Shown here in pieces: positions 2,286-52,271 of a DNA stretch of 64,000 nt (positions are counted from its first letter, which is position 1; each line of letters begins with the position of its first letter). Made by a program: the position numbers and the translations under genes. The notes under the pieces were generated by a model. The model was not told the origin of the DNA, made no database searches, and saw only the letters and a program-made list of their open reading frames with translations. The stretch comes from a plasmid: sequence record CP113993.1; one strand, 5' to 3'.

Positions 2286-2639
2286 TCACTTACATTTATA
2301 TGCTTTACCAACACCAGTTGTATTTGTTGTGCCCATAGAACCATATGCATTCGTGTTTTTTAAGTCTTGCACATAAACGACATTAGCCCCTAATTTATAG
2401 GCTTCATTCCTTAATTCGTTTCTTGCGCCTATAACTAAATTTTTATTTGATGTTACGTCACCAGTAAACCAATTCCCCTGAGACCCCACAACCTCGCCGA
2501 CGAACTCGCACTTTTCTCAATCAGGAAGATCGTTTACTAACTCAACTCGCTCAGCCCCAGGTATTGTCTGTTTAGCAGCACACGCGGACAGGGTTAGAAC
2601 AAAGGCTACGATAAAGAAAGTATTAATCTTGTTTTTCAT
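2286..2639 (-). pseudogene. Integron cassette ORF encoding a lipoprotein (signal peptide plus LSAC lipobox), interrupted by an in-frame TGA at 2517-2519; its 3' attC is displaced by the IS3-family insertion
   Basis: ATG at 2639 follows a GGGGA RBS. The product reads MKNKINTFFIVAFVLTLSACAAK...LPD, then TGA, then the same frame continues to 2286. Confidence 0.5.
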
Positions 2640-2649
2640 GATTTCCCCT

Positions 2650-2742
2650 AATGAAACATAACGTCGCTATCAATCGCGGAAAAAGGCGTAGTGCGCGAAG
2701 CGAACGAAGCTTTTTGCCGTCGATTGCATAGCTTTGTTAACC
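2650..2742 (-). other. attC (59-be) recombination site of the dfrA cassette
   Basis: GTTAAC overlaps the dfrA stop codon. An imperfect internal palindrome (CGAAGCGAACGAAGCTT) follows, and the site ends near GTTATG. Confidence 0.5.
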
Positions 2743-3219
2743 CTTTTTCCAAATTTGATAGCAATAGTTAATGTTTGAAGTAAAGTGTTGCTCAAAAACA
2801 ACTTCGAAGGTATTTGGAATACTCGGGAAGAAAACATCCCCCTCTGGCTCGATGTCGATCGTCGATAAGTGGAGCGTAGAGGCCATGGGTAATGTTTCTC
2901 GGTAAATTTCTCCGCCACCAGACACTATAACGTGACCGGTGAATTCAGCTAGCCTGTCCATGGCCTCTTCGATTGACTGAAATACAACTACATTGTCATC
3001 ATTTGATGTCCAACCTGAGCGGGTAACGACCGCGTATTTCCTATTGGGGAGTGCGCCCATAGATTCAAACGTCTTGCGACCCACCAGAAGCCACTGATTG
3101 TAGGTCAATGCTTTAAAAAGTAGCTGCTCCCCTTTCGCGGACCAGGGTATGTCTGGACCGCAACCAATCACGCCGTTTTTCGCTTTCGCAGCTATCAATG
3201 ATACTTTCAAGGTTCTCAT
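2737..3219 (-). CDS. dfrA: Trimethoprim-resistant dihydrofolate reductase, DfrA5/14/25/30 group (not dfrA1)
   Basis: The 160-aa protein has DfrA hallmarks: [55 protein letters not shown]...[14 protein letters not shown]...INYCYQIW. Confidence 0.9.
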
Positions 3220-3540
3220 CCTGGGTTAACATTTTATTAGTAAGCATGCTCGTTTTGTCACCCGCTGATGCTTACCGTTAATTAATATAATCACTTGTAT
3301 TAAATAGACTTTCTTTAAAAATATAAGACACTCTGTTATTACAAATCGTGCATGCCGTCTATCCTGCTTGCACGATGCACATTATCTCACCCAAAGAACT
3401 CATAACACTTTAATTTATTTAGCATTAAATTAAAACTCTACCGGTAAACAAGCATCTCTAGGCGTAAAAAACAGGCACTTTTTTAAATCCCAGCTAGAAT
3501 AGGCTGTATAGGCAGACAGTTGCAAGACAAGGAGCGTTTT
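3220..3540 (-). promoter_or_regulatory. attI2 region and cassette promoter of a class 2 integron (GTTAACC crossover near 3224-3230)
   Basis: The region lies between the intI2 start and the first cassette, and a GTTAACC core sits on the minus strand at the cassette boundary. Confidence 0.45.
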
Positions 3541-4518
3541 ATGTCTAACAGTCCATTTTTAAATTCTATACGCACGGATATGCGGCAAAAAGGTTATGCG
3601 CTGAAAACTGAAAAAACTTACCTGCACTGGATTAAGCGTTTTATTCTGTTTCACAAAAAACGTCATCCTCAGACCATGGGCAGTGAAGAGGTCAGGCTGT
3701 TTTTATCCAGCTTAGCAAACAGCAGACATGTAGCCATAAACACGCAGAAAATCGCTTTAAATGCCCTAGCTTTTTTGTACAACAGGTTTTTACAACAGCC
3801 GTTGGGCGATATTGATTATATCCCTGCAAGCAAGCCTAGACGGCTACCCTCTGTTATCTCTGCAAATGAAGTGCAACGCATTTTGCAGGTTATGGATACT
3901 CGCAACCAAGTAATTTTTGCGCTGCTGTATGGTGCAGGTTTGCGCATTAATGAATGCTTGCGTTTGCGGGTTAAAGATTTTGATTTTGATAATGGCTGCA
4001 TCACTGTGCATGACGGTAAGGGTGGGAAAAGCAGAAACAGCCTACTGCCCACGCGCCTAATCCCAGTAATAAAACAACTCATTGAGCAAGCGCGGCTTAT
4101 TCAGCAAGACGACAACTTACAAGGCGTAGGGCCATCGCTGCCTTTTGCTTTAGATCGCAAATACCCTTCTGCTTATCGACAAGCGGCGTGGATGTTTGTC
4201 TTTCCCTCCAGCACGCTCTGCAACCACCCGTATAACGGCAAATTATGCCGCCATCATCTGCATGACTCCGTTGCGCGAAAGGCATTGAAGGCAGCCGTAC
4301 AAAAAGCAGGCATCGTTAGCAAGCGTGTCACTTGTCATACATTTCGTCACTCGTTTGCTACGCATCTATTACAAGCGGGGCGTGATATTCGCACTGTGCA
4401 AGAACTCTTAGGGCATACCGATGTTAAGACCACGCAAATCTATACGCATGTGTTGGGTCAGCATTTTGCCGGCACCACCAGTCCTGCGGATGGACTGATG
4501 CTACTTATCAATCAGTAA
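3541..4518 (+). CDS. intI2: Class 2 integron integrase IntI2 with an uninterrupted reading frame (Gln CAA at codon 179 where Tn7 has TAA)
   Basis: The 325-aa product from MSNSPFLNSIRTDMRQKGY matches IntI2 and carries tyrosine-recombinase motifs (HTFRHSFAT, LLGH...TTQIYTH). Codon 179 (4075-4077) is CAA. Confidence 0.93.
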   Translation: MSNSPFLNSIRTDMRQKGYALKTEKTYLHWIKRFILFHKKRHPQTMGSEEVRLFLSSLANSRHVAINTQKIALNALAFLYNRFLQQPLGDIDYIPASKPRRLPSVISANEVQRILQVMDTRNQVIFALLYGAGLRINECLRLRVKDFDFDNGCITVHDGKGGKSRNSLLPTRLIPVIKQLIEQARLIQQDDNLQGVGPSLPFALDRKYPSAYRQAAWMFVFPSSTLCNHPYNGKLCRHHLHDSVARKALKAAVQKAGIVSKRVTCHTFRHSFATHLLQAGRDIRTVQELLGHTDVKTTQIYTHVLGQHFAGTTSPADGLMLLINQ

Positions 4519-5287
4519 AAGTAGATAAATATCTTTATGTAGCCCTGAGTAGCCCCTGATACTTTTTATGGTGAAAAAGATAAACAATCATAGAGGGGAT
4601 AAATATGAGCCAGTTCTACCATTGTTCAGATAAGTTTAAGCAAGATACTGTTAATCACAGTGACCATTCATGGTCATTACACTTCCTCCAGCTGCCAGAC
4701 AATGCCTAACATAAAAACGCAAAAGCCCAAAAGTCAGAGCTTAGGTGTTCTAGGCGTTTTCTAAGCGCTGAAGAAATACGTCTTACCGTAGATTGCGTGC
4801 GTTTCTGAAGCACATTTTCCTCATACATGGCTTTATCCCAGGCAGCTTCATCAAGCTCTTGGAGTAACAAGCCAGTAATAATGCGACACTTTCGGGTTTG
4901 TAGCGAGCCGCTGGTGAGATCGGAGTTATAGCGGAAAGGGGTCATTTGTAATTATTTGTGGGTGGAGGATAGTTAACTTATTATTGTAGTTGGAAGAGGC
5001 TGCTTTCCAAACATTAGCACATCGTAATGCTTGTTACTGTATATTAATTTATGCTCTTAGCGCATGTTAATGGGCTATTACAATGCATAATGTCTACATC
5101 AAGATAACTGTGGCTTAACACCTGTACAAGCGAAAAAAATCAATCACCTGTCCGGAAATACGGGATCACTGTAATGTGTTGGTGAGGCAGTCTAGGAGGG
5201 GGATTTAATTTGGGATACTGATGAAAGGATTATGATCAGTTGGATATAGGATCGTACTAAGCTGAGCGGCAGGTTAGCTAGATTAGT

Positions 5288-5454
5288 TAACCAGATAAGT
5301 GAAATCTAGTTCCAAACTATTTTGTCATTTTTAATTTTCGCATTAGCTTGCGACGCTACACCCAGTTCCCATCTATTTTGTCACTCTCCCCTAAATAATC
5401 CTTAAAAACCCCATTTTCACCCCTCCCAGTTCCCAACTATTTTGTCCGCCCACA
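5288..5454 (-). mobile_element. Tn7 left end (Tn7-L) with three dispersed 22-bp TnsB-binding repeats; terminus ...CCGCCCACA at 5454
   Basis: The reverse complement reads TGTGGGCGGACAAAATAGTTGGGAACTGGG ... GACAAAATAGATGGGAACTGGG ... GACAAAATAGTTTGGAACTAG, which is the canonical Tn7-L sequence. Confidence 0.85.
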
Positions 5455-6252
5455 TGAGGCAGCCTTTTGTCTTATTCAAAGGCCTTACATTTCAAAAACT
5501 CTGCTTACCAGGCGCATTTCGCCCAGGGGATCACCATAATAAAATGCTGAGGCCTGGCCTTTGCGTAGTGCACGCATCACCTCAATACCTTTGATGGTGG
5601 CGTAAGCCGTCTTCATGGATTTAAATCCCAGCGTGGCGCCGATTATCCGTTTCAGTTTGCCATGATCGCATTCAATCACGTTGTTCCGGTACTTAATCTG
5701 TCGGTGTTCAACGTCAGACGGGCACCGGCCTTCGCGTTTGAGCAGAGCAAGCGCGCGACCATAGGCGGGCGCTTTATCCGTGTTGATGAATCGCGGGATC
5801 TGCCACTTCTTCACGTTGTTGAGGATTTTACCCAGAAACCGGTATGCAGCTTTGCTGTTACGACGGGAGGAGAGATAAAAATCGACAGTGCGGCCCCGGC
5901 TGTCGACGGCCCGGTACAGATACGCCCAGCGGCCATTGACCTTCACGTAGGTTTCATCCATGTGCCACGGGCAAAGATCGGAAGGGTTACGCCAGTACCA
6001 GCGCAGCCGTTTTTCCATTTCAGGCGCATAACGCTGAACCCAGCGGTAAATCGTGGAGTGATCGACATTCACTCCGCGTTCAGCCAGCATCTCCTGCAGC
6101 TCACGGTAACTGATGCCGTATTTGCAGTACCAGCGTACGGCCCACAGAATGATGTCACGCTGAAAATGCCGGCCTTTGAATGGGTTCATGTGCAGCTCCA
6201 TCAGCAAAAGGGGATGATAAGTTTATCACCACCGACTATTTGCAACAGTGCC
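5455..6252 (-). mobile_element. IS26, lacking the outer 22 bp of one terminus (798 of 820 bp), directly abutting the Tn7-L terminus
   Basis: The IR TTTGCAACAGTGCC sits at 6239-6252. The internal sequence and Tnp26 are intact. The other end starts at TGAGGCAGCCTTTTGTC without GGCACTGTTGCAAAGTTAGCGA. Confidence 0.92.
5485..6189 (-). CDS. tnpA: IS26 transposase Tnp26
   Basis: The product reads MNPFKGRHFQRDIILWAVRWYCKYGISYRELQEML...LVSRVFEM, a full-length Tnp26 match. Confidence 0.95.
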   Translation of the reverse strand: MNPFKGRHFQRDIILWAVRWYCKYGISYRELQEMLAERGVNVDHSTIYRWVQRYAPEMEKRLRWYWRNPSDLCPWHMDETYVKVNGRWAYLYRAVDSRGRTVDFYLSSRRNSKAAYRFLGKILNNVKKWQIPRFINTDKAPAYGRALALLKREGRCPSDVEHRQIKYRNNVIECDHGKLKRIIGATLGFKSMKTAYATIKGIEVMRALRKGQASAFYYGDPLGEMRLVSRVFEM

Positions 6253-6423
6253 CACAATACTATAAAGTCAGGAGTCAAACTCAAACTCGTTTGGCTTGAA
6301 CGTGGCCATACCAAAGCAGACATTGTTGCAGATGTACTTGCCACAGCAGGTTTCCCTGATTTTGGGGATCAATTGAAGCTGCTGGCTACCAGCAGCCTGC
6401 AAAAAACACATAAGCTGGCCTGA
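6253..6423 (+). pseudogene. 3' remnant of an unknown gene truncated by IS26
   Basis: The open frame runs from the IS26 end and finishes ...GHTKADIVADVLATAGFPDFGDQLKLLATSSLQKTHKLA, with no upstream start. Confidence 0.3.
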
Positions 6424-6481
6424 AAGGAATACTTCACAATGAATATCATTGTGTTGGTAACCTGCTGTTATCGTGATGAAA

Positions 6482-7099
6482 TTACCGCTCAATTTTTTCG
6501 GTTGACGCGGTCTGTTCCTGCATGGTTTTCATCTTTAGCTTTTGTTTTTCCCTTACTGCCAGCCAGCGTCTGGCATTCTGCGCATCGCATTCTGATACCT
6601 GACCTGCTGGTAGTCCATCCAGTCCATAACGAGGGATACCTGCGACAGCAGTACGCAGCAGATATACCTGTCGGGTGGTGATGCAGGATATTGCACAGGA
6701 CCATTCATCCAGTGTCAGTTCTGTCTCAGGGTGTTCTGTCAGGAATGCGGCAAAATCATTGGTTATGCCAATTTTCAGTGGAAGAAATCCCCCGCTTTCT
6801 GCGCGAAGATGGGGAAACAGAGACTTAACTTTTTCCACGCAATTGTGAGTAAATTCATGAGTCCAATGAGGCTGGCGTGGAAAACGGCGTCTTTTCCTTT
6901 TTTTCTTACTGGCAGAAGCTTCAGGGGGATGAGTATCGACGGCAGGAGAACTGCTTCCCACAGATACTGGATCTTCCATCTTTACCGTCTCTGAACGTGC
7001 GATAACACCTGTTTTTTCAGATAAGGAAGGGGGTAAAAGAGTGCGACGTTTTTTCACCATAATGATGGGTGTTTTCTTTTCTTCCTGATATTTCCCCAT
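6482..7099 (-). CDS. ProQ/FinO-domain RNA-binding protein (FopA-like plasmid RNA chaperone)
   Basis: The C-terminal half aligns with the FinO domain (PLKIGITNDF...LTLDEWSCAISCITTRQVYLLRTAVAGIPRYGLDGLPAGQVSE). It has a basic Lys/Arg-rich linker and a GAGG RBS. Confidence 0.6.
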   Translation of the reverse strand: MGKYQEEKKTPIIMVKKRRTLLPPSLSEKTGVIARSETVKMEDPVSVGSSSPAVDTHPPEASASKKKRKRRRFPRQPHWTHEFTHNCVEKVKSLFPHLRAESGGFLPLKIGITNDFAAFLTEHPETELTLDEWSCAISCITTRQVYLLRTAVAGIPRYGLDGLPAGQVSECDAQNARRWLAVREKQKLKMKTMQEQTASTEKIER

Positions 7100-7293
7100 A
7101 AAAACCTCTACGATGTGTTCTTATATAATAATATATATCATATTTTCACAATTAACATAATATCTTCGTTAAGAAAATAACAGAACAAAATTTGTTGTTT
7201 TTTTATGACAGGCATGAAATGAGCCAGCATAATTATATTAATCATTATCCCAAATGAGTTTTTGTATTTGCTCATTCGGGATGGTTGGATATT

Positions 7294-8850
7294 TTAAGTT
7301 ATATCTACTGTATCATTCTCAGGTAATCGTTCCATTAAATCAGAAACTACGGGCTGTAACCAGTCAGTGACTTCACTTACATACTGATCCCATTCGGGAT
7401 GCCTGGAGGCCAGATCCATCACTCGTGTTAACCCGGACGGACGATCAATGCCCAATTTAGTTAAAATGTTCGAGATATAATTATGAGCATCAAGTTCAAC
7501 TCTGATATCCCTTGCTGCTTCTATTATTTCTAAATATTCTCCACCCAATCCGTCCAGTGGGACATTTGTAATAAGATAATGAATGTATTGTTCAGGCTTA
7601 ACTCCATTTGGGAGATTAAATTGTTTTACTTTTCCTTCCGCTGCCGCTTTTAACTCATAAGTTCGTGATTCTGTGCCGGTGAAAACTTTATCAAGAGCAG
7701 CTTTCTTTTCATTTTCTGTGGAGTATTTATCGCCATCAAGAATATAAAGTTTATCAGATAGATTATCTCCACGAATAAGTGTACTGGCAAGTAGAGTGAA
7801 TGCGTTTGAAGCTGCGCCAAATTTAAATATTTTCACATATCTGCTGGCCTTAAGTGAAGAACATATTTTATTTATTATTGCAACAGCAAGATCATCTTCC
7901 ACATATATTTCAATGGGAGTTGTTGATTTACCTGTTAATCTGTTTATAGCATCAGGTTTTGTTTCTTCAAATGAATAACTACGGCCTTGAATGTTTACGA
8001 CGTGTCTTATATTTATCTTGTCTGATAAAGTGGTTACCATTTCTCTATGGGTAGTGAAGATGATTTGTTTATTTTTATCTTCGGCATGAGTTGATATGAC
8101 GTCTATTAACTTTTTCAATGCTTCGTCATGCAACAGCAAATCTAATTCATCGATTAATATTAAGGCGTTCTTGTCCGCTTTTAATATTGTTTCCAGAATT
8201 AAAAATATCTTTTGCTCTCCTGCGCTCATACTTAATGATGAGTAGGCCAGTCCCTCTGACTCAACTCCAATCAATATTTTTCCATTGGGTTGTTGATGTT
8301 GATTGAAACTTGTATATGGTTTATTAAGTATATAGGAGGCGTAATGAAGAATGTTTGTTATTAAATCATTACTGACACTGCTGGTTTCATACTGAATATT
8401 ATTCTTTTTTTCTGATTCTATTATAGGAACACATTTATCAATGCCAAGATAGTAAACTTCTCTTAAAGGACGACGAGCATAAATCTGAATCCATCGTGAG
8501 CCTCGAACATCAGCTTTTCCATAATTTTTTAATTCATTTTCAATCATTACAACATCTTTACGATAAGTTAAATTTACAATGAAGTCACTGCCGTTCCATT
8601 CAGCATGTGGACTGCGTGGAAAAAAATGCATTAACCGATGGTCTTCACCGGGGAAACCTTTTTCAGGCATGTATATGCTTGCTATAGCATGGAGTATTGT
8701 TGATTTTCCGCTTCCATTTGGACCTAAAATTGCGGTTAACGCATGAGGTTTAAAAATAATCTCGTTTAATCCATTTATACATTTTAGTTTGTTAATTTTA
8801 ATGGAGTTCAAGACTTGACCAGTAATGGTTTTTTTCTTTTTTTCTGCCAT
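7294..8850 (-). CDS. OLD-family (overcoming lysogenization defect) ATP-dependent nuclease: N-terminal ABC-type ATPase plus C-terminal Toprim-like domain
   Basis: Walker A is GPNGSGKST, and an ABC signature / Walker B is SAGEQK...LILIDELD. The C-terminus carries a Toprim-like Glu (IYVEDD) and a DxD (LYILDGDKY). The gene is AT-rich (about 33% GC) with an AGGA RBS. Confidence 0.65.
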   Translation of the reverse strand: MAEKKKKTITGQVLNSIKINKLKCINGLNEIIFKPHALTAILGPNGSGKSTILHAIASIYMPEKGFPGEDHRLMHFFPRSPHAEWNGSDFIVNLTYRKDVVMIENELKNYGKADVRGSRWIQIYARRPLREVYYLGIDKCVPIIESEKKNNIQYETSSVSNDLITNILHYASYILNKPYTSFNQHQQPNGKILIGVESEGLAYSSLSMSAGEQKIFLILETILKADKNALILIDELDLLLHDEALKKLIDVISTHAEDKNKQIIFTTHREMVTTLSDKINIRHVVNIQGRSYSFEETKPDAINRLTGKSTTPIEIYVEDDLAVAIINKICSSLKASRYVKIFKFGAASNAFTLLASTLIRGDNLSDKLYILDGDKYSTENEKKAALDKVFTGTESRTYELKAAAEGKVKQFNLPNGVKPEQYIHYLITNVPLDGLGGEYLEIIEAARDIRVELDAHNYISNILTKLGIDRPSGLTRVMDLASRHPEWDQYVSEVTDWLQPVVSDLMERLPENDTVDIT

Positions 8851-9114
8851 TTTCAAATCCTAGCATTATGTTGGGGGAATTCACCATGTAATTCAGAAAC
8901 ATATAACTGTGAACAGGGGATATATCAAATCCTTTTAATATTCTATTTGGCACAGTATTCTACATCAGGCCTCTTTTATGCTACAGACTTTTTGAGATGT
9001 CTGTAATTTTAGACTTAATGTTATGACTGATCATATCTCCTATCCACTGGTGGCGCAGGAAAGTTAACCGGCTGCCACCATGGGATGATGTGTAAACCGT
9101 GCACAGGCGTGTTC

Positions 9115-10249: not shown

Positions 10250-11371
10250 ATGAATTTTTATGTGGATGAAACCGGTCATACCGGTCCAAATCTGTTTGAC
10301 CGCACCCAGCGTGTTCTATCTTACGGCGTTCTGTCCTCACCCGATGACCTGGACAAGGTGGCCGAATCTGAACTGGCCAGTTTGCGCAAAAAGCTGGGCG
10401 TACAGCGCCTTCACGCTGCTGAGCTGGGCATGTATCGCCTTGATGATGTGGTCGATACGCTGCTGGTTCTGCAGAAGAAGCACCGGATACGGTTTGATGT
10501 CTGGCAGGTGGTTAAACGGGATCACGCCATTATTTCGTTCTTTGATCAGGTATTTGATCAGGGACTGAATCCTGCGGTGCCTTGGAGCGCCTACTGGACG
10601 CCACTGCGTTATCCGTTGCTGCTGAATTTAGCAAATCTGTTTGATGACGACCTGGCTGAAAAATCATGGCGAGCCCGGCTCGAGGCACATGATGAACGTT
10701 CTTCCTCTCTTTTCAGCGAAGTTTGTAACGTGTTGCTTCAGCGGGTTCATACTTTGGGTGACGCTCGCTCAGTTGAACTGATAACGGATGCGCTGTCTTG
10801 GGCGATGATGAATTTTGATAAATTGGGGTACAATTGCAAAACTAACAAACAAAAGTTGCAGATCATGCCTAATATGATCGGTTTTCAGTCTGTATTACAC
10901 GGTATTTGCTCCCGTTTAGGGGCACCAAACAGAAAAGCAAATATCATTGTGGATCAGCAGTCACAGTTTAATACCACTCAACGGGAACTGAACGATCTTT
11001 ATTTCAAGATTCGCGAACAACCGTGGGAACTTGGACCTGGATTGCCCGTCATGGATATGAAGAACATGCCAGCTGAACCACTTGTCTTCCTGTCGGGTAC
11101 GCAAAGCGCAGGGCTGGAGCTGGTTGATATTTATCTCTGGACTTTCAAGCGGTTTATGGAAGATAAGGAGCTGACCAAGCCTCTTACGCGCCTTGTTTAT
11201 ACAAATCTTAAGACTGCCAGAACAGACAACGTTTCCCTGCAGTCAGTTGGAAAACGTTTTAAGGAATTTTTTGAAAATAAACCTGAGCCTACAGCAGAGA
11301 AAATGGCTCAGGTACGTGAGCTGCGTGAATTAGAAGAGGCCAGACGTATGCCATATGTGATGTCCAAATAA
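10250..11371 (+). CDS. DUF3800-like protein (tentative; N-terminal FYVDETGHTG motif)
   Basis: The 373-aa ORF has an N-terminal Y-x-DE-[ST]-G signature that I associate with DUF3800. There is no other recognisable domain. Confidence 0.45.
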   Translation: MNFYVDETGHTGPNLFDRTQRVLSYGVLSSPDDLDKVAESELASLRKKLGVQRLHAAELGMYRLDDVVDTLLVLQKKHRIRFDVWQVVKRDHAIISFFDQVFDQGLNPAVPWSAYWTPLRYPLLLNLANLFDDDLAEKSWRARLEAHDERSSSLFSEVCNVLLQRVHTLGDARSVELITDALSWAMMNFDKLGYNCKTNKQKLQIMPNMIGFQSVLHGICSRLGAPNRKANIIVDQQSQFNTTQRELNDLYFKIREQPWELGPGLPVMDMKNMPAEPLVFLSGTQSAGLELVDIYLWTFKRFMEDKELTKPLTRLVYTNLKTARTDNVSLQSVGKRFKEFFENKPEPTAEKMAQVRELRELEEARRMPYVMSK

Positions 11372-11413
11372 CCTTTTAATACCGGTTATATATTAGCGTT
11401 TATCTGTACCCTC

Positions 11414-11905
11414 TTAAGAACAGGTAGTAGATTTGACCTGTAAACAGCTTCTACTACATTTTTTTCTATCATTCATTGACGTCCACAAATCTAGGATTTG
11501 AGCATCGCTATTCATCGCCACGTCATGCAGAAACAAAAAGAATTCCCCTTCATTATCTCCCAGATGCGAATCGAGATAACGTAACAACCACACTGCATGC
11601 ATCAAAACATGACGTTGTTTCCGTTGCAGACGCTTTAACGGGAGGCGTATCGTCATATCATCCAGTTTGCGAGTCTCCTGAGAGAGTGGCTGCAGCATGT
11701 TTCTCAGTCCTGATTTTAGCTCCTGTATGGGTGCGCTCACGCTGAACAATCTACTGGTACCGAGCAGCGTATCTTCCATCATTCTGTGGACCTTTTGGCT
11801 CTGATCTTTGGATGCATGATATTGTTTAAAATGATACTCAACATAAGTGCCCGCTACATTTAGTCCAACTTTGGTAAATTGACCAAGTAATTCTTCAGTA
11901 TTCAT
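11414..11905 (-). CDS. Hypothetical protein (163 aa from MNTEELLGQF)
   Basis: The ORF has an RBS-proximal ATG and no recognisable motif. Confidence 0.4.
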   Translation of the reverse strand: MNTEELLGQFTKVGLNVAGTYVEYHFKQYHASKDQSQKVHRMMEDTLLGTSRLFSVSAPIQELKSGLRNMLQPLSQETRKLDDMTIRLPLKRLQRKQRHVLMHAVWLLRYLDSHLGDNEGEFFLFLHDVAMNSDAQILDLWTSMNDRKKCSRSCLQVKSTTCS

Positions 11906-12460
11906 AAAAATCTCCTTATTTGAAGGTAAATGACCATGTGATGTGGTCGACGGAGTAAATGTATACTGTTTTAGCATTTAGTGCTATGTGTTTTTGCAAA
12001 AAGTGCTAAATTCAATTTCAGTCGTTGACTTTTGTTTTTATGTTTATTTTCTGTCCTGCTTTTCTGCCAAGATCCGATTTCCGGTTGTTCAGGATCTTCC
12101 TCTCCCTCCGCACAGCGCCATCTCCCGTCAGCACAACATGTAGTGCTGAATTCAGCTGCTAATGACACTATATGTTGTGTCATCTCCCTGACCTGTGATG
12201 CGCCGCGCAGGGGGCGGAAAACAGCGATATGATGATTTTCTCAGCGTGGTACACTTCCGGAAACCCGTCAATAACAGAAAAATCGGATCATCTGAAAACT
12301 ACTGTTCGGTAATTTAATGGAGTGGTTATATGCCTGATTATTATTTCAGTATGTGAAATTCATTTTTGTGAAAGTCACTTTCTCAACAGAGTGGCACTCA
12401 TCTGGCGATGATTGAGGTGTGGTAAAATTGCACGGCTAACTATTCAACTGAGGAAAGGAC

Positions 12461-12811
12461 ATGTTTACTGCATTCAATGAGAGAAATGATTTCAGTTATG
12501 CTTTTGAAAAAATCCGTAATGCGATTTCCGCGCCAGGAGAAAATAATGTTTATGCTGCAACAGAATTAGGTCTTGGCATTCTGCTCCGTAAATACGAGCA
12601 GTTTCGCCGGGAGCTGGATGTGGCCGGTGAGCTGGGAAACTGGGAATACGATCTCGATACCTACAATCACTGTATTGCGGTGCTGCAACGTTACTTCACT
12701 GGCAATCCATCCGGACTGACAGAACGTGACGCCCGGATTTACAGTCAGTACCTGCAGACTGAGCACAAAGGGTTTGTGAAGCTGGCTGAAGAACTGGCGG
12801 CTGACCGCTGA
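12461..12811 (+). CDS. Hypothetical 116-aa protein, first gene of a three-gene operon with the HEPN-like protein and the recombinase
   Basis: The ORF lies in the same orientation as the 273-aa gene, 58 bp upstream of it. Confidence 0.4.
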   Translation: MFTAFNERNDFSYAFEKIRNAISAPGENNVYAATELGLGILLRKYEQFRRELDVAGELGNWEYDLDTYNHCIAVLQRYFTGNPSGLTERDARIYSQYLQTEHKGFVKLAEELAADR

Positions 12812-12869
12812 ATACATACAGTAGGCGGGATTTCTTCTTTATTAAGACACTATAAGAGGTCACAGCAAT

Positions 12870-13691
12870 ATGGGTTGCATGAAGGAATATATGCAGGATC
12901 TGGAAGCTGAACGGTTTGATGAATGGCTTGAGGAGAATTACCCGGATGTTAATCCCAACTCTGAAGAATGGGAGCAGGCCGCGAACCTGTACTGCTGGGA
13001 GCAGGAAGCGCTGGCCGATCAGGCTCAGTGGGAACATGAACACGGGCTCTTTGTGGCTTCCCTGAACAATGTTCATCTGCGTTACATACACGCAAAGGAG
13101 GAGCTGAAGAAGCTGTATACCCTACTCGATAAGGAGCAGCCTGAACTGGTGTACAGGATGTCTTTCGTCCATGCAGTGACTGTAATGGAGGCGTACCTGA
13201 TGTACTGCGCCAGGGCTCTGCTTGAGCATGACTGGCCCCTTAAACGTTTCCTTAATGAGTACTATCTGAAATCCGCACCTAAGGTCACTAATAAAGATAA
13301 AACCGCCGCCCGCACAATGGATGTTGAACTGTTCAGGCCTGCAGCCCGAAATTATGTTTCCCGAATGACATTTCATAACGTTAAAACCATTGAGCGCTAT
13401 TTCGGGGCCGTGCTGCACATCCCTCCCGTCTGGCCAACTGAGCCACTGGGCATCATCTCAGACTGGCGAAATGATCTTGTACACCGCAACGGCGTGGATG
13501 AACATGATGTGCCACGGGGGATATCAGCACAGCAGCTGCAGAATACCCTGCAGAAAGTATCGGACCTGATAGAGGCTGCTGACATATCCCTGCGTCAGGA
13601 AGTTGACTATTTCGGTAACTGGCGTAATGAGGAAAACCGGGCAATCATCGCATCAGCACTGAATATATCGCCAGTCGGAGAGTCACACTGA
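12870..13691 (+). CDS. Hypothetical protein with a HEPN-like R-N-x-x-x-H motif (RNDLVH, residues 200-205)
   Basis: The Rx4H motif is embedded in a predicted helical C-terminal half. Its stop TGA overlaps the recombinase ATG (cacTGATGacc). Confidence 0.45.
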   Translation: MGCMKEYMQDLEAERFDEWLEENYPDVNPNSEEWEQAANLYCWEQEALADQAQWEHEHGLFVASLNNVHLRYIHAKEELKKLYTLLDKEQPELVYRMSFVHAVTVMEAYLMYCARALLEHDWPLKRFLNEYYLKSAPKVTNKDKTAARTMDVELFRPAARNYVSRMTFHNVKTIERYFGAVLHIPPVWPTEPLGIISDWRNDLVHRNGVDEHDVPRGISAQQLQNTLQKVSDLIEAADISLRQEVDYFGNWRNEENRAIIASALNISPVGESH

Positions 13692-28431: not shown

Positions 28432-28485
28432 TGAACAACCACACCGCCCCGCCGGAGACGGGGCGGCAGCAAGGGAGATACCGTG

Positions 28486-28920
28486 ATGAAAACTGAACTG
28501 ACCCTGAATGCCCTGCAGTCCATGAACGCACAGGAATATGAAGATATCCGTGCTGCGGGAAGCGATATGCGCCGTAATCTCACTCACGAGGTGATGCGTG
28601 AAGTGGACGCACCGGCTAACTGGATGATGAATGGCGAGTATGGCAGTGAGTTCGGGGGCTTTTTCCCCGTCCAGGTTCGTTTCACGCCAGCCCACGAACG
28701 TTTCCACCTGGCATTATGTTCGCCGGGAGACGTCTCTCAGCTCTGGATGCTGGTTCTGGTGAATGGTGGTGGACAGCCTTTCGCCGTCGTTCAGGTGCAA
28801 CATATCTTCACGCCTGTCGCTATCAGTCACACGCTGGCGCTTGCCGCGACACTTGATGCGCAGGGGTACAGTGTTAACGACATCATCCATATCCTGATGG
28901 CAGAAGGAGGTCAGGCATGA
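28486..28920 (+). CDS. psiB: Plasmid SOS inhibition protein PsiB
   Basis: Near-identity to F PsiB across [27 protein letters not shown]...[36 protein letters not shown]. Confidence 0.95.
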
Positions 28921-29178
28921 GCGCACGTTCACGGGCACTGATCCCCCTCAGCGCAGAGCAACAGGCCGCCATGCAGGCTGTGGCTGTCACCGAACAACGT
29001 CGTCGTCAGGGACGCACACTTTCAGCATGGCCTTATGCCAGCGCTTTCTTTCGCTGCCTGAATGGCAGTCGCCGGATTTCGCTGACCGATCTCCGCTTTT
29101 TTGCTCCTGCGCTGACGAAGGAGGAATTTCATGGCAACCGTCTCCTGTGGCTGGCTGCCGTGGATAAACTGATTGAAA
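28917..29178 (+). pseudogene. psiA: psiA 5' fragment (codons 1 to about 87), interrupted by the ISEcp1 transposition unit
   Basis: [62 protein letters not shown]...LIE matches the PsiA N-terminus. The frame runs into inserted AT-rich DNA. Confidence 0.85.
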
Positions 29179-29265
29179 CCCATATAATGCGCCTACTTAT
29201 CAGCCTTTGGGACGTTGGGACGGTATTTTTCACTATATACCCCCAAGTTTTTAGACATGAAAAAA

Positions 29266-29297
29266 GCTCGATATATTATAAATATATCGAGCCTTTA
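29266..29297 (-). terminator. Rho-independent terminator downstream of the MBL-fold gene (GCTCGATATATT...AATATATCGAGC followed by T-run on the minus strand)
   Basis: A perfect 12-bp stem is followed by TTTTTTCAT on the minus strand. Confidence 0.5.
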
Positions 29298-29402
29298 AGT
29301 TACTGTTTTTCAATATCGTTCAAAATCTTGATAATTACAGTATACGGTTTTATGAAGTGGTATATTTGCAAATGCTTATTTTGCAAGGTCTATTTGCTTG
29401 AT

Positions 29403-30044
29403 TTATCCTACAATCGTAATGCAAAACCCATGACCGGAAGCAACGAACTTAGGTTCAATCTCACTCAAATCCGAGGATAGCTTTTGTCCGGATTCTTGAT
29501 TGGGCAATGTATCTGCGCCGCTTGATTTTACCGCTGCGTCCCAACTGCTTTCGATAACTTGTCCGTGATTCTCACCCATGCCGAACATGAGGTCGCTGCT
29601 AAAGAAAATACCACGTTTCTTTTCAAAAAATAAAAGTCCTTCCCACATATGCATTTCAGATGGGTAACTGATAGTTTGAAATTCAAAATCATCTCCGGCA
29701 AATATTTCATTCGGCTTTTTAATAAGCACATTGTTAGTAATACCAAACCCCATCAGTTGTCTTGCTGTGGTTTCGGAACAAACCGCGACAGCTTCGGGAT
29801 GTTCTTTGAGAACCAAAGCAAGTCCGCCACATTCGTCTGATTCAAAATGAGAAATTAGAATGTATTTTATTTTGCGTTCACCGAGCAACTCTTGCAACTT
29901 AGGAATGGTAGTTTGCGCTTGTGATACGGCTCCGGTCTGAATGAGAACAGGCTCATTTGTCATCAATAAGTATTGGTGCATTGAAAGCTTAATCGGCTCC
30001 ATTACCTCTGTAAATTGGTATAAATCTTTGATAATCTCTGTCAT
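29403..30044 (-). CDS. MBL-fold protein resembling the diiron N-terminal domain of flavodiiron proteins (standalone, no flavodoxin domain); cargo gene of the ISEcp1 unit
   Basis: KYILISHFESDECGG occupies the position of the FDP H-x-E-x-D-H motif, and SYPSEMHMWEGLLFF...IFFSSDLMFGMG resembles FDP. There is no signal peptide. The gene is AT-rich and starts 33 bp downstream of the ISEcp1 IRR. Confidence 0.65.
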   Translation of the reverse strand: MTEIIKDLYQFTEVMEPIKLSMHQYLLMTNEPVLIQTGAVSQAQTTIPKLQELLGERKIKYILISHFESDECGGLALVLKEHPEAVAVCSETTARQLMGFGITNNVLIKKPNEIFAGDDFEFQTISYPSEMHMWEGLLFFEKKRGIFFSSDLMFGMGENHGQVIESSWDAAVKSSGADTLPNQESGQKLSSDLSEIEPKFVASGHGFCITIVG

Positions 30045-30076
30045 TGTCAAAACACCTTTTTCTATTTATAGTCTAA

Positions 30077-31732
30077 CCTAAATTCCACGTGTGTTTTTTA
30101 TTAGCTTCAAAAATCACTATTTCACGAAGAATTTAGACTGCTTCTCACACATTGTAACATTATTTACAACCACCTTTCAATCATTTTTGATAAATCATTG
30201 ATTTCATCTTTGCTGCAATGATACTTAATAAACTCTGCAAGTTATCCACAGAGCAACACTCAATTTTATTGATGATATTCTTATTATACCAGACATTTTT
30301 CATACACTCCCTTGTACGGATAGTTTTCCGACAACTTCATGATTACATATCTTGCGGTTTTGATTATTTTTGCTGCAAGAAATACATACTTCAAACGAAA
30401 GGTCTTTATTTGCTGTCTGTATTCTGAAGAGTCCAAGGAATCAAACTTGAACAACAAAAATAGGTTATATGAAAGCATCATCATTTGAAACACGGCTTCA
30501 TTCGCCCAAAATGACTTTAGCAAGAGATGACCCACCGCCATGTCGTATTTGGCTTCTTTGATATAGTTTTCAGCATTACCACGCTTTTCATAGTATATAA
30601 CTACTTTTTCAGAAAGCAAGGTAGTATTTGTTACAAAGAAAAAGTAGTCGTATTCGGAACCTTCTAAAAGTGATAATTGTGCTCTTTCTTTTTCTGGTTT
30701 CAGTACGCGAGATACGACAAATCTTCTGTCTTTTTCCCATTTAACTAATTTTGTATACAGTTCTGTAGTTTCTCTACCTTCTTCTCCTTTAACGAATACA
30801 ATTGATGAATTCGTTGCTTGTGAGGTGAGTGTAGAATAACTTTTGGCTTTAATTAAATATTTGCATCCAAGAGATTCTATCGTTTCGATAATTTTTTCAT
30901 CAAAGTAGCCACTATCCATTCGAAATAAAATTTCTAAATCGTCTGATTTGATGTTAGCAACAATTTCTTTGATCATTTCCGCAGCACCGTTTGCAGTGTA
31001 AGTATTGCCACTTCTTACAAATCCGGTAACATATGCTTTTAATTCGTCGCAAAATGCAAATTGGATATTGTAGCATCGGTTTCCCAGTTTCTTAGGATTA
31101 TATCCTTTTGACGCACCTTCTTGATGACCTTCTACGTTAATTACACTACTATCAATATCAATCGTAATGGATGTCAATTTACTTTTAGTGAGCAGTTTTT
31201 TAAAGACTTTAAAATTAATGTCTCTAAACATTTGGGTTGTCTTGAAGTTGAAGTTTCCTAGAAACCGTGACACTGTTTCAGGTTCTTTTACGGAAATATC
31301 AAACTCGTTGACGAGGGGATCATTTTGAAGTAGCTTTAGACGTTCTAACTTATCAATGCCAATGAAGTGACCGCAGAGCATGGTCTTTATATGATTCATC
31401 TTGATTTTATTTGTTGAGTCATTATCAAATACGAGGTCATTTTCAATAAAATCAAAAATCCCATTGCTTTTTGCATTCTCAAGGAGCAGAAAAAGACCTG
31501 CATTTGATGTTAGATTCTTAGCTTTGAAATCAATTTTATTAATCATAATTAGAACCCCTTTTTACTACTTTTCTTACTATTATTTTACCATATATCGAGT
31601 CATAAAAGCTGATAATTTAACATATTTTTGAGCACTTTTCTTTCACCCAATGGGTGAAAGCTGAATTTCGAAGGAATGCATATTTATCAAGGCTTTGATT
31701 ATGCTTTTTGAAGTACTGACGTAGAATCTAGG
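30077..31732 (-). mobile_element. ISEcp1 (IS1380 family), complete 1656 bp: IRR CCTAAATTCCACGTGTGT at 30077-30094, IRL CCTAGATTCTACGTCAGTAC (reverse complement) at 31713-31732
   Basis: Both IRs are recognised, and the internal sequence with the AT-rich 5' leader matches ISEcp1. Confidence 0.95.
30284..31546 (-). CDS. tnpA: ISEcp1 transposase
   Basis: The 420-aa product begins MINKIDFKAKNLTSNAGLFLLLENAKSNGIFDFIEND. Confidence 0.95.
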   Translation of the reverse strand: MINKIDFKAKNLTSNAGLFLLLENAKSNGIFDFIENDLVFDNDSTNKIKMNHIKTMLCGHFIGIDKLERLKLLQNDPLVNEFDISVKEPETVSRFLGNFNFKTTQMFRDINFKVFKKLLTKSKLTSITIDIDSSVINVEGHQEGASKGYNPKKLGNRCYNIQFAFCDELKAYVTGFVRSGNTYTANGAAEMIKEIVANIKSDDLEILFRMDSGYFDEKIIETIESLGCKYLIKAKSYSTLTSQATNSSIVFVKGEEGRETTELYTKLVKWEKDRRFVVSRVLKPEKERAQLSLLEGSEYDYFFFVTNTTLLSEKVVIYYEKRGNAENYIKEAKYDMAVGHLLLKSFWANEAVFQMMMLSYNLFLLFKFDSLDSSEYRQQIKTFRLKYVFLAAKIIKTARYVIMKLSENYPYKGVYEKCLV

Positions 31733-31737
31733 TGAAA

Positions 31738-32195
31738 GTTTTGGTGAAGTCTGTGTTCTTCCCCTGCCATCCGATGCGGGGCATCGTCTGTTCCCGTCCG
31801 TTCCTTTTCGTGAAGGTGAGCGGCGTCGTCAGAAAACCACGCTGACAGAGCAGAAATACAGCCGCCAGCGGGAACGTGAGGCAGAACGACGGGAACTGGA
31901 ATACCAGACATGTTTTGCTCAGGCGCAGATTGACCTTGCGTTTCATACTCCCGCCACGGTCGGAAGCTGGTTGTCCCGCTGGTCTGGTGTTGTTGAGGAG
32001 CATGATCTGGAAACGATTTTCTGGGGGTGGTGCGGGCGTTTTCCATCACTGTCATCATTTGACCGGTTTTTCTGGCAGGAGGAACCACTCTGGCGGCTGA
32101 TTTTTGAAGCCGGTGAGGCCGGTCGTGGTGCACCGGTACAGGTACGTGCACTTGAGCAGTGGATGATCCCGAACAAGCTGGAGAACGCAATATGA
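31738..32195 (+). pseudogene. psiA: psiA 3' fragment
   Basis: The frame reads ...CVLPLPSDAGHRLFPSVPFREGERRRQ..., ending WMIPNKLENAI. It matches the PsiA C-terminal part. Confidence 0.8.
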
Positions 32196-48460: not shown

Positions 48461-48637
48461 TCACGTTAAAAATTTGTACCCTTCTTTAACTTCCAGTGCC
48501 TGCTCCTTTGACTCAAACATCAGTCTTGTTTTCCCGGGAACGCCCCATGAAATGTATTCAACATCTATCCACCATTTTCCATATTCTTTATATGGCCCGG
48601 ATATTACTTTTTTGACAAAGGCGTCTACCAGATTCAT
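48461..48637 (-). CDS. Hypothetical small AT-rich ORF (58 aa)
   Basis: ORF only. Confidence 0.25.
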   Translation of the reverse strand: MNLVDAFVKKVISGPYKEYGKWWIDVEYISWGVPGKTRLMFESKEQALEVKEGYKFLT

Positions 48638-49022
48638 TGTTTTTTCCTTTTTATTTTGAAAATAATTAATGCCAGAGCACAGCGAAAATAATGAATGCGC
48701 TGGCTGTGATAATTGCGATTTTCTCCCATATGATATTTTTCTCATAGGGGTTTCTACGGAGATTATTTCTTCGCATTGAGATACCGGTATTCATGTTTTA
48801 TCTTGGACTTTTGTTTTGTTGTCTGTCTGGCAGGCTGTTCTGCGCCCGTTTGTGACAAGGTTAGCTTATGGGGTTAAATGGTCACGGACATCATGCGGAC
48901 GGTTCCCTGTCACATGCCATCTGGTTTTTTCATTCAAATTGAGAGATATTGCTAAGTTGAGTCGCTTGCGATAGTGGACTCCTGTTTGTAAGTGAGTGCC
49001 ATTGTTTATTTCATGAAGAGGA

Positions 49023-49238
49023 TTGATTATGAGCATGCCTCCTGCGATAGCTAATACTTTCTTGTTTGAAATGATGAAGAGTAAATCAAAAGACGTTACA
49101 CTTGCTGCGATCTATGCATTAGGTGAAGGCCGGTGTCAGGCGGAGAACATTACTCGTGAATTACATAGATTGAGTCAAAGTGATGATATGGAAATAAAAA
49201 TTGCTGCGATTAAAGCACTTGGTCGAATTTATCGGTAA
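49023..49238 (+). CDS. Hypothetical small protein (71 aa)
   Basis: ORF with a GAGG RBS. Confidence 0.3.
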   Translation: MIMSMPPAIANTFLFEMMKSKSKDVTLAAIYALGEGRCQAENITRELHRLSQSDDMEIKIAAIKALGRIYR

Positions 49239-49309
49239 CGGCATAAGTTATCTGTTGTAATGAACAAAAGCCGGCTCATTTGAACCGGCTGTTATGGAGG
49301 GAGCTTATC

Positions 49310-49984
49310 TTAAAATACTTCGGCTACAGGCATGCCTGCAATCTGCTCCCACTCCTTACGCTTCTCCTGAATTAGGCGAGGAAAGTCGACAGGGTAATCA
49401 TATCCTCTTTCTGCCATTGCATGCATTGTATCCGCCATCATTTTGGGATGGATGCATCCTGACGGAATTGAGACCATTGGTATATTTATGTATTTTGTAT
49501 AAATCTCTAGTGTCTTGGCGTCGGTCACAGTGCGTGTGAAGTTGTCAATGTCAAAGCCGATAATATCCATTATATTTCCAGGGTAAGCACGAGCATACAG
49601 CATAGTGCCTTTTTTGGTATCCACGCCAAAATAGACGCCCTGAGTAAAAGACAGTCCCTCATATTCTTTGTCAGGTGAATAAAAACCGGTGTTTTTTATC
49701 TCCGCGACAATTTTTTTTATTTTGTCTTTTCTTGAGCTTGCTCGGGAATACATCAATATTGCAGGGGCAATTAGTAAAAACAGACAGACGCAAGTATAAA
49801 TATAATCTTCTTGCGTCACATATCTTGAAGATGTAATGGAGAGCACTCCGAAAAGAATAAAAATGGATAACACTGGTATGCTTATGAAATATATAAATCT
49901 AAGGGCGTAATATAATGTCCACCAAGCAGGATATCTATTGATTGTTTTTACCATTTGCATAATAAACCCTCCATAAACACTCAT
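49310..49984 (-). CDS. excA: Entry exclusion protein ExcA
   Basis: The 224-aa membrane protein lies immediately downstream of traY, as in R64. Confidence 0.65.
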
Positions 49985-50033
49985 CGATATTTTAATGCGA
50001 TTGAGTGTTTATGGCAAGGTTGTTTTATTAAAA

Positions 50034-52271
50034 TTATCCTTTTATTCCATCTTTATTATCATCCTTTGTGACATTTTTTAGTCTGTCCTCTCTAACTCCA
50101 GGGCTGTGTCTAATATTTCTATTAGAACCTGCAAAAATATCTTTTACTGATGAGGTGAGGTTGCCAAGAGTATTTACACCATCTCTACCACCCAAGAAAT
50201 TGATAACATGGTCAGGAAGATATGCTTGTAAAGCAAATATTGCAGCTACAGACGTTGTACACATACGGGCGTAAATTAGCAGGAACCCGGCAAGGCTGAA
50301 TATCCCTGTTAATGATTTTACCTGTACGTTAACTAGTGCTGCGCCAAACAGTGAGTTTAATATTGTGCCGACGGCAATGATGGCGACAGAGGCAAAAAAG
50401 AAACCGAATACCATGAGAGGTGGTCTTATCATGCTGTCAATTAAGTATATATATCCGTAAGCTGCTCGACTTCCTCTGTCCTCTGATGTTCCTAGATGTG
50501 TTGCTGCCCACAGAGGCCCGGCGGTGCATCCTATTAATACGCTTACTATCCAGTTCCCAATGCCTGTCATCCAGAAAATGAATGGTATAAATGGTAGGTA
50601 AATTGATAAGGAAAAACCCGCACAAAACAACAGGAACAACAAGAAATATATTGGGGGAGCTGCAGCATCCAGCAGAGCAACAAATCCTTTAGGTAATCCA
50701 GAGAACAAATTAACAGCCTTTCCGAAAATAGAGTTATCACCCATTGTCGCGAGAACTCTGACAGTTGTATATCCTGTCCAGAGAATTTCTGTTGTACCCA
50801 ATGTATAATCGCCGATGTTTTTCATCTTAATTAATGGGTTAACTTGGTTGCTGGTTGTTCCTGTTCCTGACCATTCAGTAGCAGCTTGGTTTGTCCATTT
50901 TAATATGGTTGGCGCTATACTTTTCATGACCACACTTTGTGGGTCTGTGCTATTAGCTGCATTACTTTCATCTTGAGTTGTTATCGTTCCTATCGTTGGA
51001 GTATATGTGGAGTTCTGTAATTGAGTCTTGTATGCCCCCATAACAGCACTAAATAAATCAGTATCGCCAACTTCCCCAAGTGATGACATTGAAGTTACAG
51101 CTGGAGCTCTGTCAGCCAGCTCTGCCAGACGCTGGTTAGCAGTGGCAAAGGTCTGATACCACGCGCCAAGCGTCACCCATCCATAGGTTGTGAGATAAGA
51201 CTTGAGAGCTTCTTTCCTGGATTGTTCTCCGTTATCAATAGGTAGCGATTTTTGTACAGCACGTTCATACTCGTCGGCTGCTCTCTGAATCCGTGTCTCG
51301 ATATCCGGCAATGTTCCGTTGCCAGAATTTCTTTTTTCCAGAAATGTTGTCACAAACTCACTGGCAGCGTTGTCCATGTCGCTAATCATATTATCCATGG
51401 CTGCACGTTGTGCTGAGATAACACCGCTGTATTCGTTTTTACTGAAGGGATTAAAGAATTTTCCAATCGTCGATTGATCTGTTGTTCCGTTTCCTTCTAC
51501 TGACAGGCTGGCTGAACCACAGATACCGCTGCCATTGGATACCGTGACAGTGTAATTACCACTGGCGGTTTTAGCTGATTCTGTCATCAGTGAAGTCGAG
51601 GATTTGACCGTCTGATTAAAATCATTTAGTCCTGCGTTAACCGCATACTTACACAGTTCCATTTCAAAAATGCCACGCGCTGCTGTTCGTGTGGATGCCT
51701 GAACTGGCTGTACAGTCATTGAATAACCATTTGCGATATTATCAGCGGCAAGTTGCACCATCACATTGGCGGACCCAACCCCCATTATCGATGCGCCCCA
51801 TAACATAATGAGCTGAGCGATACTCCAGCCATTTCCGGTTGGAACGATCATCAGAAAACCTGCAACGACACTCAGTGTGCCGACGATATCGCGTCCGGTG
51901 CTGAATACCTGTCCCTGATGCCCCGAACGCACAACATGACGGATACCAATGAACATAAACCAGACAACGGCAAGTACGGCGATGATACTGTTGAACGCCC
52001 CGAACATGCTTCCGATCAGAGTGGGGGCGCTGGTTGACAGTGGATTGGTGACTACATCACCGAATATCGTGACCAGCGCCTGGCGAGACAGATCGTCAGG
52101 ATTGGTTGCGGCAGACACAATATCCTGATAGGTCACTGAAGCCATTGCCGGCAGTGAGGATATAGCAAGGCCTGCACAGAGTGCGCGAAGTAAAATTTTC
52201 ACAGTAACTCCGGAATAGAATTGCGTATGGGCAAAGGCCACACAGGATTTAATTAAGGGGGATGGCGACAT
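50034..52271 (-). CDS. traY: TraY (polytopic inner-membrane protein, entry-exclusion target)
   Basis: The 745-aa protein equals R64 TraY in length. It has multiple TM segments and is the last gene of the tra operon. Confidence 0.8.
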   Translation of the reverse strand: MSPSPLIKSCVAFAHTQFYSGVTVKILLRALCAGLAISSLPAMASVTYQDIVSAATNPDDLSRQALVTIFGDVVTNPLSTSAPTLIGSMFGAFNSIIAVLAVVWFMFIGIRHVVRSGHQGQVFSTGRDIVGTLSVVAGFLMIVPTGNGWSIAQLIMLWGASIMGVGSANVMVQLAADNIANGYSMTVQPVQASTRTAARGIFEMELCKYAVNAGLNDFNQTVKSSTSLMTESAKTASGNYTVTVSNGSGICGSASLSVEGNGTTDQSTIGKFFNPFSKNEYSGVISAQRAAMDNMISDMDNAASEFVTTFLEKRNSGNGTLPDIETRIQRAADEYERAVQKSLPIDNGEQSRKEALKSYLTTYGWVTLGAWYQTFATANQRLAELADRAPAVTSMSSLGEVGDTDLFSAVMGAYKTQLQNSTYTPTIGTITTQDESNAANSTDPQSVVMKSIAPTILKWTNQAATEWSGTGTTSNQVNPLIKMKNIGDYTLGTTEILWTGYTTVRVLATMGDNSIFGKAVNLFSGLPKGFVALLDAAAPPIYFLLFLLFCAGFSLSIYLPFIPFIFWMTGIGNWIVSVLIGCTAGPLWAATHLGTSEDRGSRAAYGYIYLIDSMIRPPLMVFGFFFASVAIIAVGTILNSLFGAALVNVQVKSLTGIFSLAGFLLIYARMCTTSVAAIFALQAYLPDHVINFLGGRDGVNTLGNLTSSVKDIFAGSNRNIRHSPGVREDRLKNVTKDDNKDGIKG

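Follow-up and report, generated by a model that had tools for sequence, protein, structure and literature searches.

An ISEcp1 transposition unit with a predicted di-iron protein gene as cargo, inserted in psiA of an IncI-complex plasmid

The stretch of DNA analysed here, further referred to as the window, comprises 64,000 nucleotides of the plasmid record CP113993.1. It contains a 2554-bp unit (29179-31732), formed by the 1656-bp insertion sequence (IS) ISEcp1 and 898 bp of cargo with a low content of guanine and cytosine (GC), which is inserted in the plasmid gene psiA. This is a genuine ISEcp1 unit of the textbook kind, abundant in public data. Its single gene is predicted to encode a stand-alone di-iron protein with the metallo-beta-lactamase (MBL) fold. 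With a probability that we put at roughly 0.88, it is a one-ended ISEcp1 transposition unit whose cargo was captured in an anaerobic low-GC member of the Bacillota, which then spread as a block and one copy of which came to lie in psiA. What is new here is the precise identity of the cargo, the recognition of the unit as a fixed mobile block, and the evidence for capture in an anaerobic Bacillota genome, which bears on the unexplained origin of ISEcp1. A full-text literature search of incomplete coverage yielded no published description of this ISEcp1-ODP unit and no Tn number for it, so that a prior description is possible; no paper on where ISEcp1 came from was found in the literature search.

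Structure of the unit and its insertion in psiA

The features of the unit and its target are as follows (positions in the window).

28483-28920, plus strand: psiB, intact, directly upstream of the split psiA and overlapping its start by ATGA
28917-29178, plus strand: codons 1-87 of psiA (5' part), with the left TGAAA copy at the end
29174-29178: left copy of the target duplication, TGAAA, read directly
29179-29192, minus strand: alternative right end of the unit (IRR-alt), CCCATATAATGCGC on the plus strand
29179-30076, minus strand: cargo, taken to be captured, 898 bp, GC 38%
30077-31732, minus strand: complete ISEcp1, 1656 bp, with the right inverted repeat (IRR) at 30077-30090 and the left one (IRL) at 31719-31732
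30284-31546, minus strand: tnpA, IS1380-family DDE transposase, 420 aa, Pfam DDE_Tnp_1_4, E=2e-55
31733-31737: right copy of the target duplication, TGAAA, read directly
31738-32195, plus strand: 3' part of psiA, which joins 28917-29178 into one open reading frame

The coordinates given in an earlier note, made from the sequence alone, all hold. That note had called ISEcp1 complete, and both inverted repeats and the full transposase are indeed present. On direct reading, the IRL is CCTAGATTCTACGT on the minus strand (31732-31719), the IRR at 30077-30090 is CCTAAATTCCACGT on the plus strand, and 12 of their 14 positions agree. The 14-bp terminal inverted repeats of the element, CCTAGATTCTACGT and ACGTGGAATTTAGG, are those of ISEcp1 and are identical to the repeats given in PMC10101111. 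The tnpA product scores 329.6 bits with the NCBIfam IS1380 model NF033539 (cutoff 180) and is 100% identical to the ISEcp1 transposase cluster. The 64-kb window contains one copy of ISEcp1.

The 5-bp duplication TGAAA encloses ISEcp1 and the cargo together, as expected for the one-ended unit that had been proposed, and no duplication flanks ISEcp1 alone (30077-31732) on direct reading. The GC content equals 38% in the cargo and 33% in ISEcp1, far below the 57-59% of the flanks. Deletion of 29179-31737 in silico restores psiA in frame as a 720-bp open gene of 239 aa, 100% identical to the uninterrupted psiA of R64; at least 80% of this gene is covered in 1846 plasmids of PLSDB. The full-length 239-aa frame is absent from the window, where the gene is present but split after codon 87. 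The cargo is not backbone DNA, since relatives have a whole psiA of 100% identity: the empty site in R64 and more than 1000 other plasmids rules out the origin that, according to the earlier note, would have overturned its claim of foreign DNA.

The distal end of the unit requires a separate comment. Of its 14 positions, IRR-alt has 7 in common with IRR and 8 with IRL, and about 5% of the local 14-mers score as well, so this likeness lies within the chance range and was rejected as statistically meaningful by itself. The boundary at 29179 is established by the target duplications and by the other copies, as the unit ends at the identical two bases in every copy examined. For the degenerate IRR-like end described previously, the position holds, and the likeness carries no weight on its own. 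As far as is known, the alternative ends of published ISEcp1 units likewise match IRR weakly.

The insertion left psiB whole, as had been noted: its product scores 266.6 bits with the NCBIfam PsiB equivalog and matches it end to end (model positions 1-144 of 144), and the gene is annotated as psiB in identical plasmids. The further statement that an anti-SOS gene was inactivated overstates the likely consequence, given the background on the two proteins. PsiB is the inhibitor of RecA and the SOS response, and to our knowledge PsiA has no established anti-SOS role. The loss of psiA probably has little phenotypic effect in this plasmid.

By its neighbours (ssb, a ParB-like gene, psiB, ardA) and the conjugation types (MOBP/MPF_I), psiA belongs to the leading region of an IncI-complex plasmid. 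PLSDB contains the interrupted allele psiA::unit three times, in two Salmonella plasmids and in an IncI-gamma/K1 plasmid of Escherichia coli; the allele is a lineage marker rather than a hotspot. In the E. coli plasmid (NZ_CP133855.1), 848 bp of ISEcp1 (window 30488-31335) are deleted and most of tnpA is gone; this copy is immobilised. In the sister Salmonella plasmid NZ_CP085982.1 (103120-108484), the psiA::unit region is about 1.06 kb longer and has one more annotated transposase, which presumably marks another IS insertion. Elsewhere in the window, low GC content was observed at 7000-9000 (33-35%) and 46000-51000 (35-44%) against a backbone of about 50-60%; these stretches may be other acquired segments.

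The cargo gene and its chromosomal relatives

The features of the cargo gene and its expression signals are as follows.

29403-30044, minus strand: cargo gene, stand-alone ODP/flavodiiron-type di-iron MBL-fold protein (predicted), WP_000134999.1, 213 aa from ATG
30151-30180, minus strand: ISEcp1 outward promoter, −35 TTGAAA, 18-nt spacer with TG, −10 TACAAT
29266-29292, minus strand: intrinsic terminator of the cargo gene, hairpin with a 12-bp stem followed by TTTTTT, 3' of the stop codon, reading GCTCGATATATTTATAATATATCGAGCTTTTTT

The earlier note had described the product as a cytoplasmic 213-aa MBL-fold protein other than a beta-lactamase. Motif, model scores, fold and N-terminus all agree with this, and homology together with structure modelling narrows the identity to a putative di-iron domain of the ODP/flavodiiron type. 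The protein matches Pfam ODP (PF19583) with 49.3 bits (cutoff 27.2; profile positions 2-194 of 194). The residues invariant among 30 aligned relatives are H66, E68, D70, E71, C72, H132, D151 and H205, which gives the family motif H-x-E-x-D-E…H…D…H. These residues coincide with the flavodiiron ligand positions (H-x-E-x-D-H…H…D…H) except that the invariant Glu71 replaces His at the fourth ligand. The structure model has a predicted local distance difference test (pLDDT) value of 91.7. In Foldseek, its best PDB folds are the flavodiiron cores 4FEK, 7R2P, 1YCF and 2Q9U, with template modelling (TM) scores of 0.78-0.81; the ODP structure 6QRQ yields 0.74-0.75, and the zinc beta-lactamases, of which IMP-1, BcII and GIM-1 are in the list, 0.61-0.68. 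The identity to solved structures is only 15-21%.

A beta-lactamase was rejected on motif, class-B model score and fold. The zinc motif H-x-H-x-D-H is absent from the protein, which has H-F-E-S-D-E in its place; the NCBIfam model bla_class_B_core yields 25.1 bits against a cutoff of 100; and the N-terminus MTEIIKDLYQFTEVMEPIK (MTEIIKDLYQF) contains, by direct reading, no hydrophobic segment that could be a signal peptide. The protein is probably cytoplasmic and is predicted to bind or reduce O2 or NO, an activity from which an anaerobe would benefit. Rather than an antibiotic-resistance enzyme, it is most likely a hitch-hiker in its enterobacterial hosts. Automatic annotations of the two genes in public data read ‘ISEcp1 family transposase’ and ‘MBL fold metallo-hydrolase’ or, recently, ‘oxygen-binding di-iron domain-containing protein’.

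The relatives of the cargo protein likewise stand alone and are about 213 aa long. Nearly all that are named come from anaerobes, for the most part Clostridia (Anaerocolumna, Muricomes, Lacrimispora and Clostridium), with a few from Synergistaceae and Sphaerochaeta. The nearest ones outside the unit are 87%, 81% and 79% identical and are encoded in IS-free chromosomal loci with the order TetR, SfsA, ODP, MarR and with rubrerythrin nearby. The closest native locus (L025, Clostridia-type) has 87% protein and 84% DNA identity to the cargo. Its DNA homology starts at window position 30076, the first base past IRR, includes the native ribosome-binding site and extends to 29410, just before the stop codon. 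Such a start would be left behind if ISEcp1 had entered 32 bp ahead of a resident gene and later read through its own IRR. As the relatives are chromosomal genes of Clostridia and the homology begins at the IRR edge, the cargo appears to have been captured in an anaerobic Bacillota donor. The search for the donor chromosome that the earlier note had proposed was thus successful in part, recovering the Clostridia relatives (at best 84% in DNA) and not the donor itself. No IS-free copy above 87% protein or 84% DNA identity was found in GTDB (one genome per species), in JGI metagenome contigs, in a search of 5.8 billion proteins, among the members of the 90% protein cluster or on the contigs of the four closest homologues.

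The position of the outward promoter, another check that had been suggested, was determined: −35 and −10 boxes were found, and the cargo ATG (30044) lies 106 nt past the end of the −10 box. The ATG is preceded by the native ribosome-binding site AAAGGTG. Given this promoter upstream and a ribosome-binding site and terminator of its own, the gene is probably expressed. The terminator hairpin was reported by a scan of the plus strand only, and its minus-strand sequence reads as given above; it should also limit antisense read-through toward psiB.

Copies of the unit in plasmids and chromosomes

The 898-bp cargo was found in 334 PLSDB plasmids, 244 of which contain at least 80% of its length; the hosts include Klebsiella, Escherichia, Salmonella, Citrobacter, Aeromonas, Edwardsiella and Photobacterium. 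The unit is present in 156 of 5426 complete E. coli genomes (about 3%), 27 times in the chromosome, and the exact cargo protein on at least 1000 contigs. All named members of its 99%-identity cluster belong to Gammaproteobacteria. Beside psiA, at least eight other sites are occupied, each marked by its own 5-bp duplication. Seven further duplications are listed here, and all targets are AT-rich:

TATTC: Clostridium-type chromosome (L004)
AAGTT: Vibrio (L006)
TTCTT: metagenome-assembled genome (L008)
TATAA: IncHI1B plasmid (L032)
TAATC: IncN plasmid (L034)
ATAAT: pRA1 (L037)
TACAA: metagenome contig (L044)

By these comparisons, the unit can be regarded as a recurrent block that moves with fixed ends, common and not unique to the plasmid of the window. 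All its copies are at least 99% identical.

The copy in pRA1, the IncA reference plasmid, occupies 10397-12950 of NC_012885.1. This plasmid was isolated in 1971 (PMC3155540, PMC11628540). A second matching place in the same record was reported by the search.

Many copies (L031, L035, L036, L043, L046 and L003) share the left junction ...acgaataataatc, located about 600 bp from strA-strB, and in them ISEcp1 is often truncated by IS26. They look like one insertion event spread by IS26-type rearrangements. The TAATC duplication matching this junction is still present in the IncN plasmid L034. The right flank of L003 reads as its reverse complement, gatta, suggesting that an inversion took place.

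Two copies come from Bacillota. L004 is a 210-kb contig with 34% GC from a metagenome-assembled genome of a gut Clostridium. Its unit is 99.9% identical to that of the window and is inserted in a gene of a chemoreceptor (methyl-accepting chemotaxis protein, MCP), with phosphotransferase system enzyme I, PfkB and TatD as neighbours. Removal of the unit and one TATTC leaves an open frame of about 570 codons across the junction, the MCP gene; both this frame and the duplication speak against an assembly chimera. The other copy (L005) is located in contig NZ_JAWJZA010000025.1 of a Veillonella absiana isolate, together with genes of a relaxase and a NikA-like protein. The flanks of both copies have no match in PLSDB and contain housekeeping or Gram-positive-type mobilisation genes; hence, we rejected the possibility that these are mis-binned enterobacterial plasmids.

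The transposase also has relatives of its own. Hundreds of transposases 84-93% identical to that of ISEcp1 occur in metagenomes; the contig of one of them (90% protein identity) encodes the spore protein SspH, and others lie on metagenome contigs of 31-41% GC. In the Veillonella contig, a second unit (2425-5301) is inserted inside tnpA of the ISEcp1-ODP unit, at window 30740-30744, with a 5-bp overlap or duplication. It consists of an ISEcp1-like IS (91% DNA identity) and about 1.2 kb coding for a 130-aa PNPOx_N protein and a helix-turn-helix/transposase-like protein. Similarly, two metagenome contigs (L040 and L041, each at 5813-8042) share an identical block of 2230 bp whose chromosomal context differs between them; it is formed by an ISEcp1 relative (80% DNA, 86% protein) and a downstream 130-aa PNPOx_N gene. 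This block is a parallel unit of an IS and a small redox passenger in low-GC anaerobes. PNPOx-like proteins include the nim nitroimidazole-resistance family.

Proposed history, rival explanations and known systems

The following history would account for these observations. ISEcp1 would have inserted 32 bp upstream of a chromosomal di-iron gene in an anaerobic low-GC donor from Bacillota, probably an organism of the Clostridia or Lachnospiraceae type. In a later transposition, the transposase would have paired the IRL with a weak IRR-like sequence 898 bp past the true IRR, fixing the 2554-bp unit. As the comparisons show, this block now moves with 5-bp duplications at AT-rich targets; it has spread in Enterobacterales, Vibrio, Aeromonas and Edwardsiella, in both plasmids and chromosomes, and also occurs in Clostridium-type and Veillonella DNA. 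In the IncI-complex plasmid of the window, one copy sits behind codon 87 of psiA, within the leading region. Because one-ended capture needs the IS beside its cargo, such a Bacillota-type donor must have housed an active ISEcp1.

One rival concerns the place of capture. The cargo could have been captured in a proteobacterium and passed to Bacillota later, its affinity to Clostridia going back to an earlier horizontal transfer into a proteobacterium that has not been sampled. The gammaproteobacterial identity of all named members of the 99%-identity cluster and the failure of the searches to find the donor are consistent with this, but the source-named relatives outside the unit, down to about 55% identity, are all non-proteobacterial anaerobes (mostly Clostridia; Synergistaceae, Sphaerochaeta), both cargo and ISEcp1 are low in GC, and relatives of ISEcp1 occur in a spore-former and on other low-GC contigs. 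We therefore consider capture in a proteobacterium unlikely. One may also question which element is ancestral. If the 2554-bp element were an original ‘transporter IS’ with its real right end at 29179 and a passenger of its own, the 1656-bp ISEcp1 would be a shortened derivative using an internal end. The same two ends are always used, pRA1, a 1971 isolate, already has the unit, and the related IS with 80% DNA identity also has a downstream PNPOx_N passenger in an identical 2230-bp block in two contexts. Yet the IRL matches the internal IRR at 12 of 14 positions and the end at 29179 at only 7-8, close homologues of the passenger reside in conserved IS-free chromosomal neighbourhoods, and IS relatives have other cargo or none. 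Moreover, the native-locus homology starting exactly at IRR is the signature of insertion beside a resident gene followed by read-through. This makes an ancestral long element very unlikely.

The spread itself might be explained by selection, were the cargo to confer resistance or fitness, for instance as a cryptic metallo-beta-lactamase or another drug-modifying hydrolase. It has the MBL fold, with IMP-1, BcII and GIM-1 also listed by Foldseek; it lies under the strong ISEcp1 promoter, as do blaCTX-M and blaCMY; and the unit is often found within resistance regions, beside strA-strB and IS26. We give this explanation hardly any credence, as the zinc motif is replaced by an invariant H-F-E-S-D-E, the class-B core model yields 25 bits where 100 are required, the TM scores to beta-lactamases (0.61-0.68) are below those to flavodiiron cores (0.78-0.81), the N-terminus lacks a signal peptide, and the native neighbours TetR, MarR and rubrerythrin point to redox stress.

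Capture in Bacillota followed by spread of the block thus remains the preferred history, and several points weigh against it. The true donor was not found in the collections searched; the best native relative reaches 84% DNA identity, and its similarity ends at the stop codon, leaving the 224-bp 3' flank and IRR-alt uncovered. The likeness of IRR-alt to IRR is one that about 5% of local 14-mers reach. The Clostridium-type copy comes from a metagenome-assembled genome. As all copies are at least 99% identical, selection is unreadable from the sequences. Finally, both the direction of transfer between the phyla and the expression of the cargo are inferences.

It is possible, though we would sooner doubt it than assert it, that the ISEcp1-ODP unit records, as a molecular fossil, how ISEcp1 came from a Clostridia-type anaerobe into Proteobacteria before the cephalosporin era. 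This reading draws on the 99.9%-identical copies in the Clostridium-type chromosome and the Veillonella mobilisable element, and on pRA1, isolated well before ISEcp1-blaCTX-M was described. If it is true, the IS that was later to mobilise blaCTX-M and blaCMY would have its reservoir in anaerobic Bacillota of gut and aquatic habitats. Near-identical copies are in any case common today to Bacillota and Enterobacterales. The unit is a testable lead on the ISEcp1 reservoir, with the 898-bp cargo as a convenient tracing marker, and its modest novelty consists in what it says of where ISEcp1 has lived.

With regard to known proteins, ODP of Treponema denticola has been described as an O2 sensor for chemotaxis (PMC7666581). 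The cargo protein has the MBL fold and carboxylate/histidine ligand positions in common with this ODP and with the N-terminal domain of flavodiiron proteins (FprA, NorV flavorubredoxin), and, like ODP, stands alone without a flavodoxin module. It differs from both in the Glu at the fourth ligand (H-x-E-x-D-E), followed by an invariant Cys. Unlike ODP, the native loci of its relatives show no coupling to chemoreceptors, the neighbours being TetR, SfsA and MarR.

The insertion resembles known IS insertions in leading-region genes of plasmids, such as psiA of IncI and IncF plasmids, in that an accessory gene is simply disrupted, here with psiB, ssb and ardA intact; the present allele differs in its occurrence in only three PLSDB plasmids.

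ISEcp1 is the main vehicle of blaCTX-M, blaCMY-2 and blaOXA-181 from chromosomes to plasmids. The units carrying these genes or qnrB19 (e.g. Tn6503, Tn6502, Tn6538, Tn2012, Tn2013) contain the same IS. As is proposed for the unit described here, their mobilisation is one-ended, via the IRL and a degenerate IRR-like sequence past the true IRR. Also in common are the 5-bp duplication around the whole unit, the position of the cargo downstream of the outward promoter and the re-use of one fixed unit at many sites. The differences concern the cargo. It is not a resistance gene, so ISEcp1 mobilises genes of other kinds too, and its probable source is an anaerobic Bacillota-type chromosome, whereas the cargo of the resistance-gene units comes from Kluyvera, Citrobacter and Shewanella.

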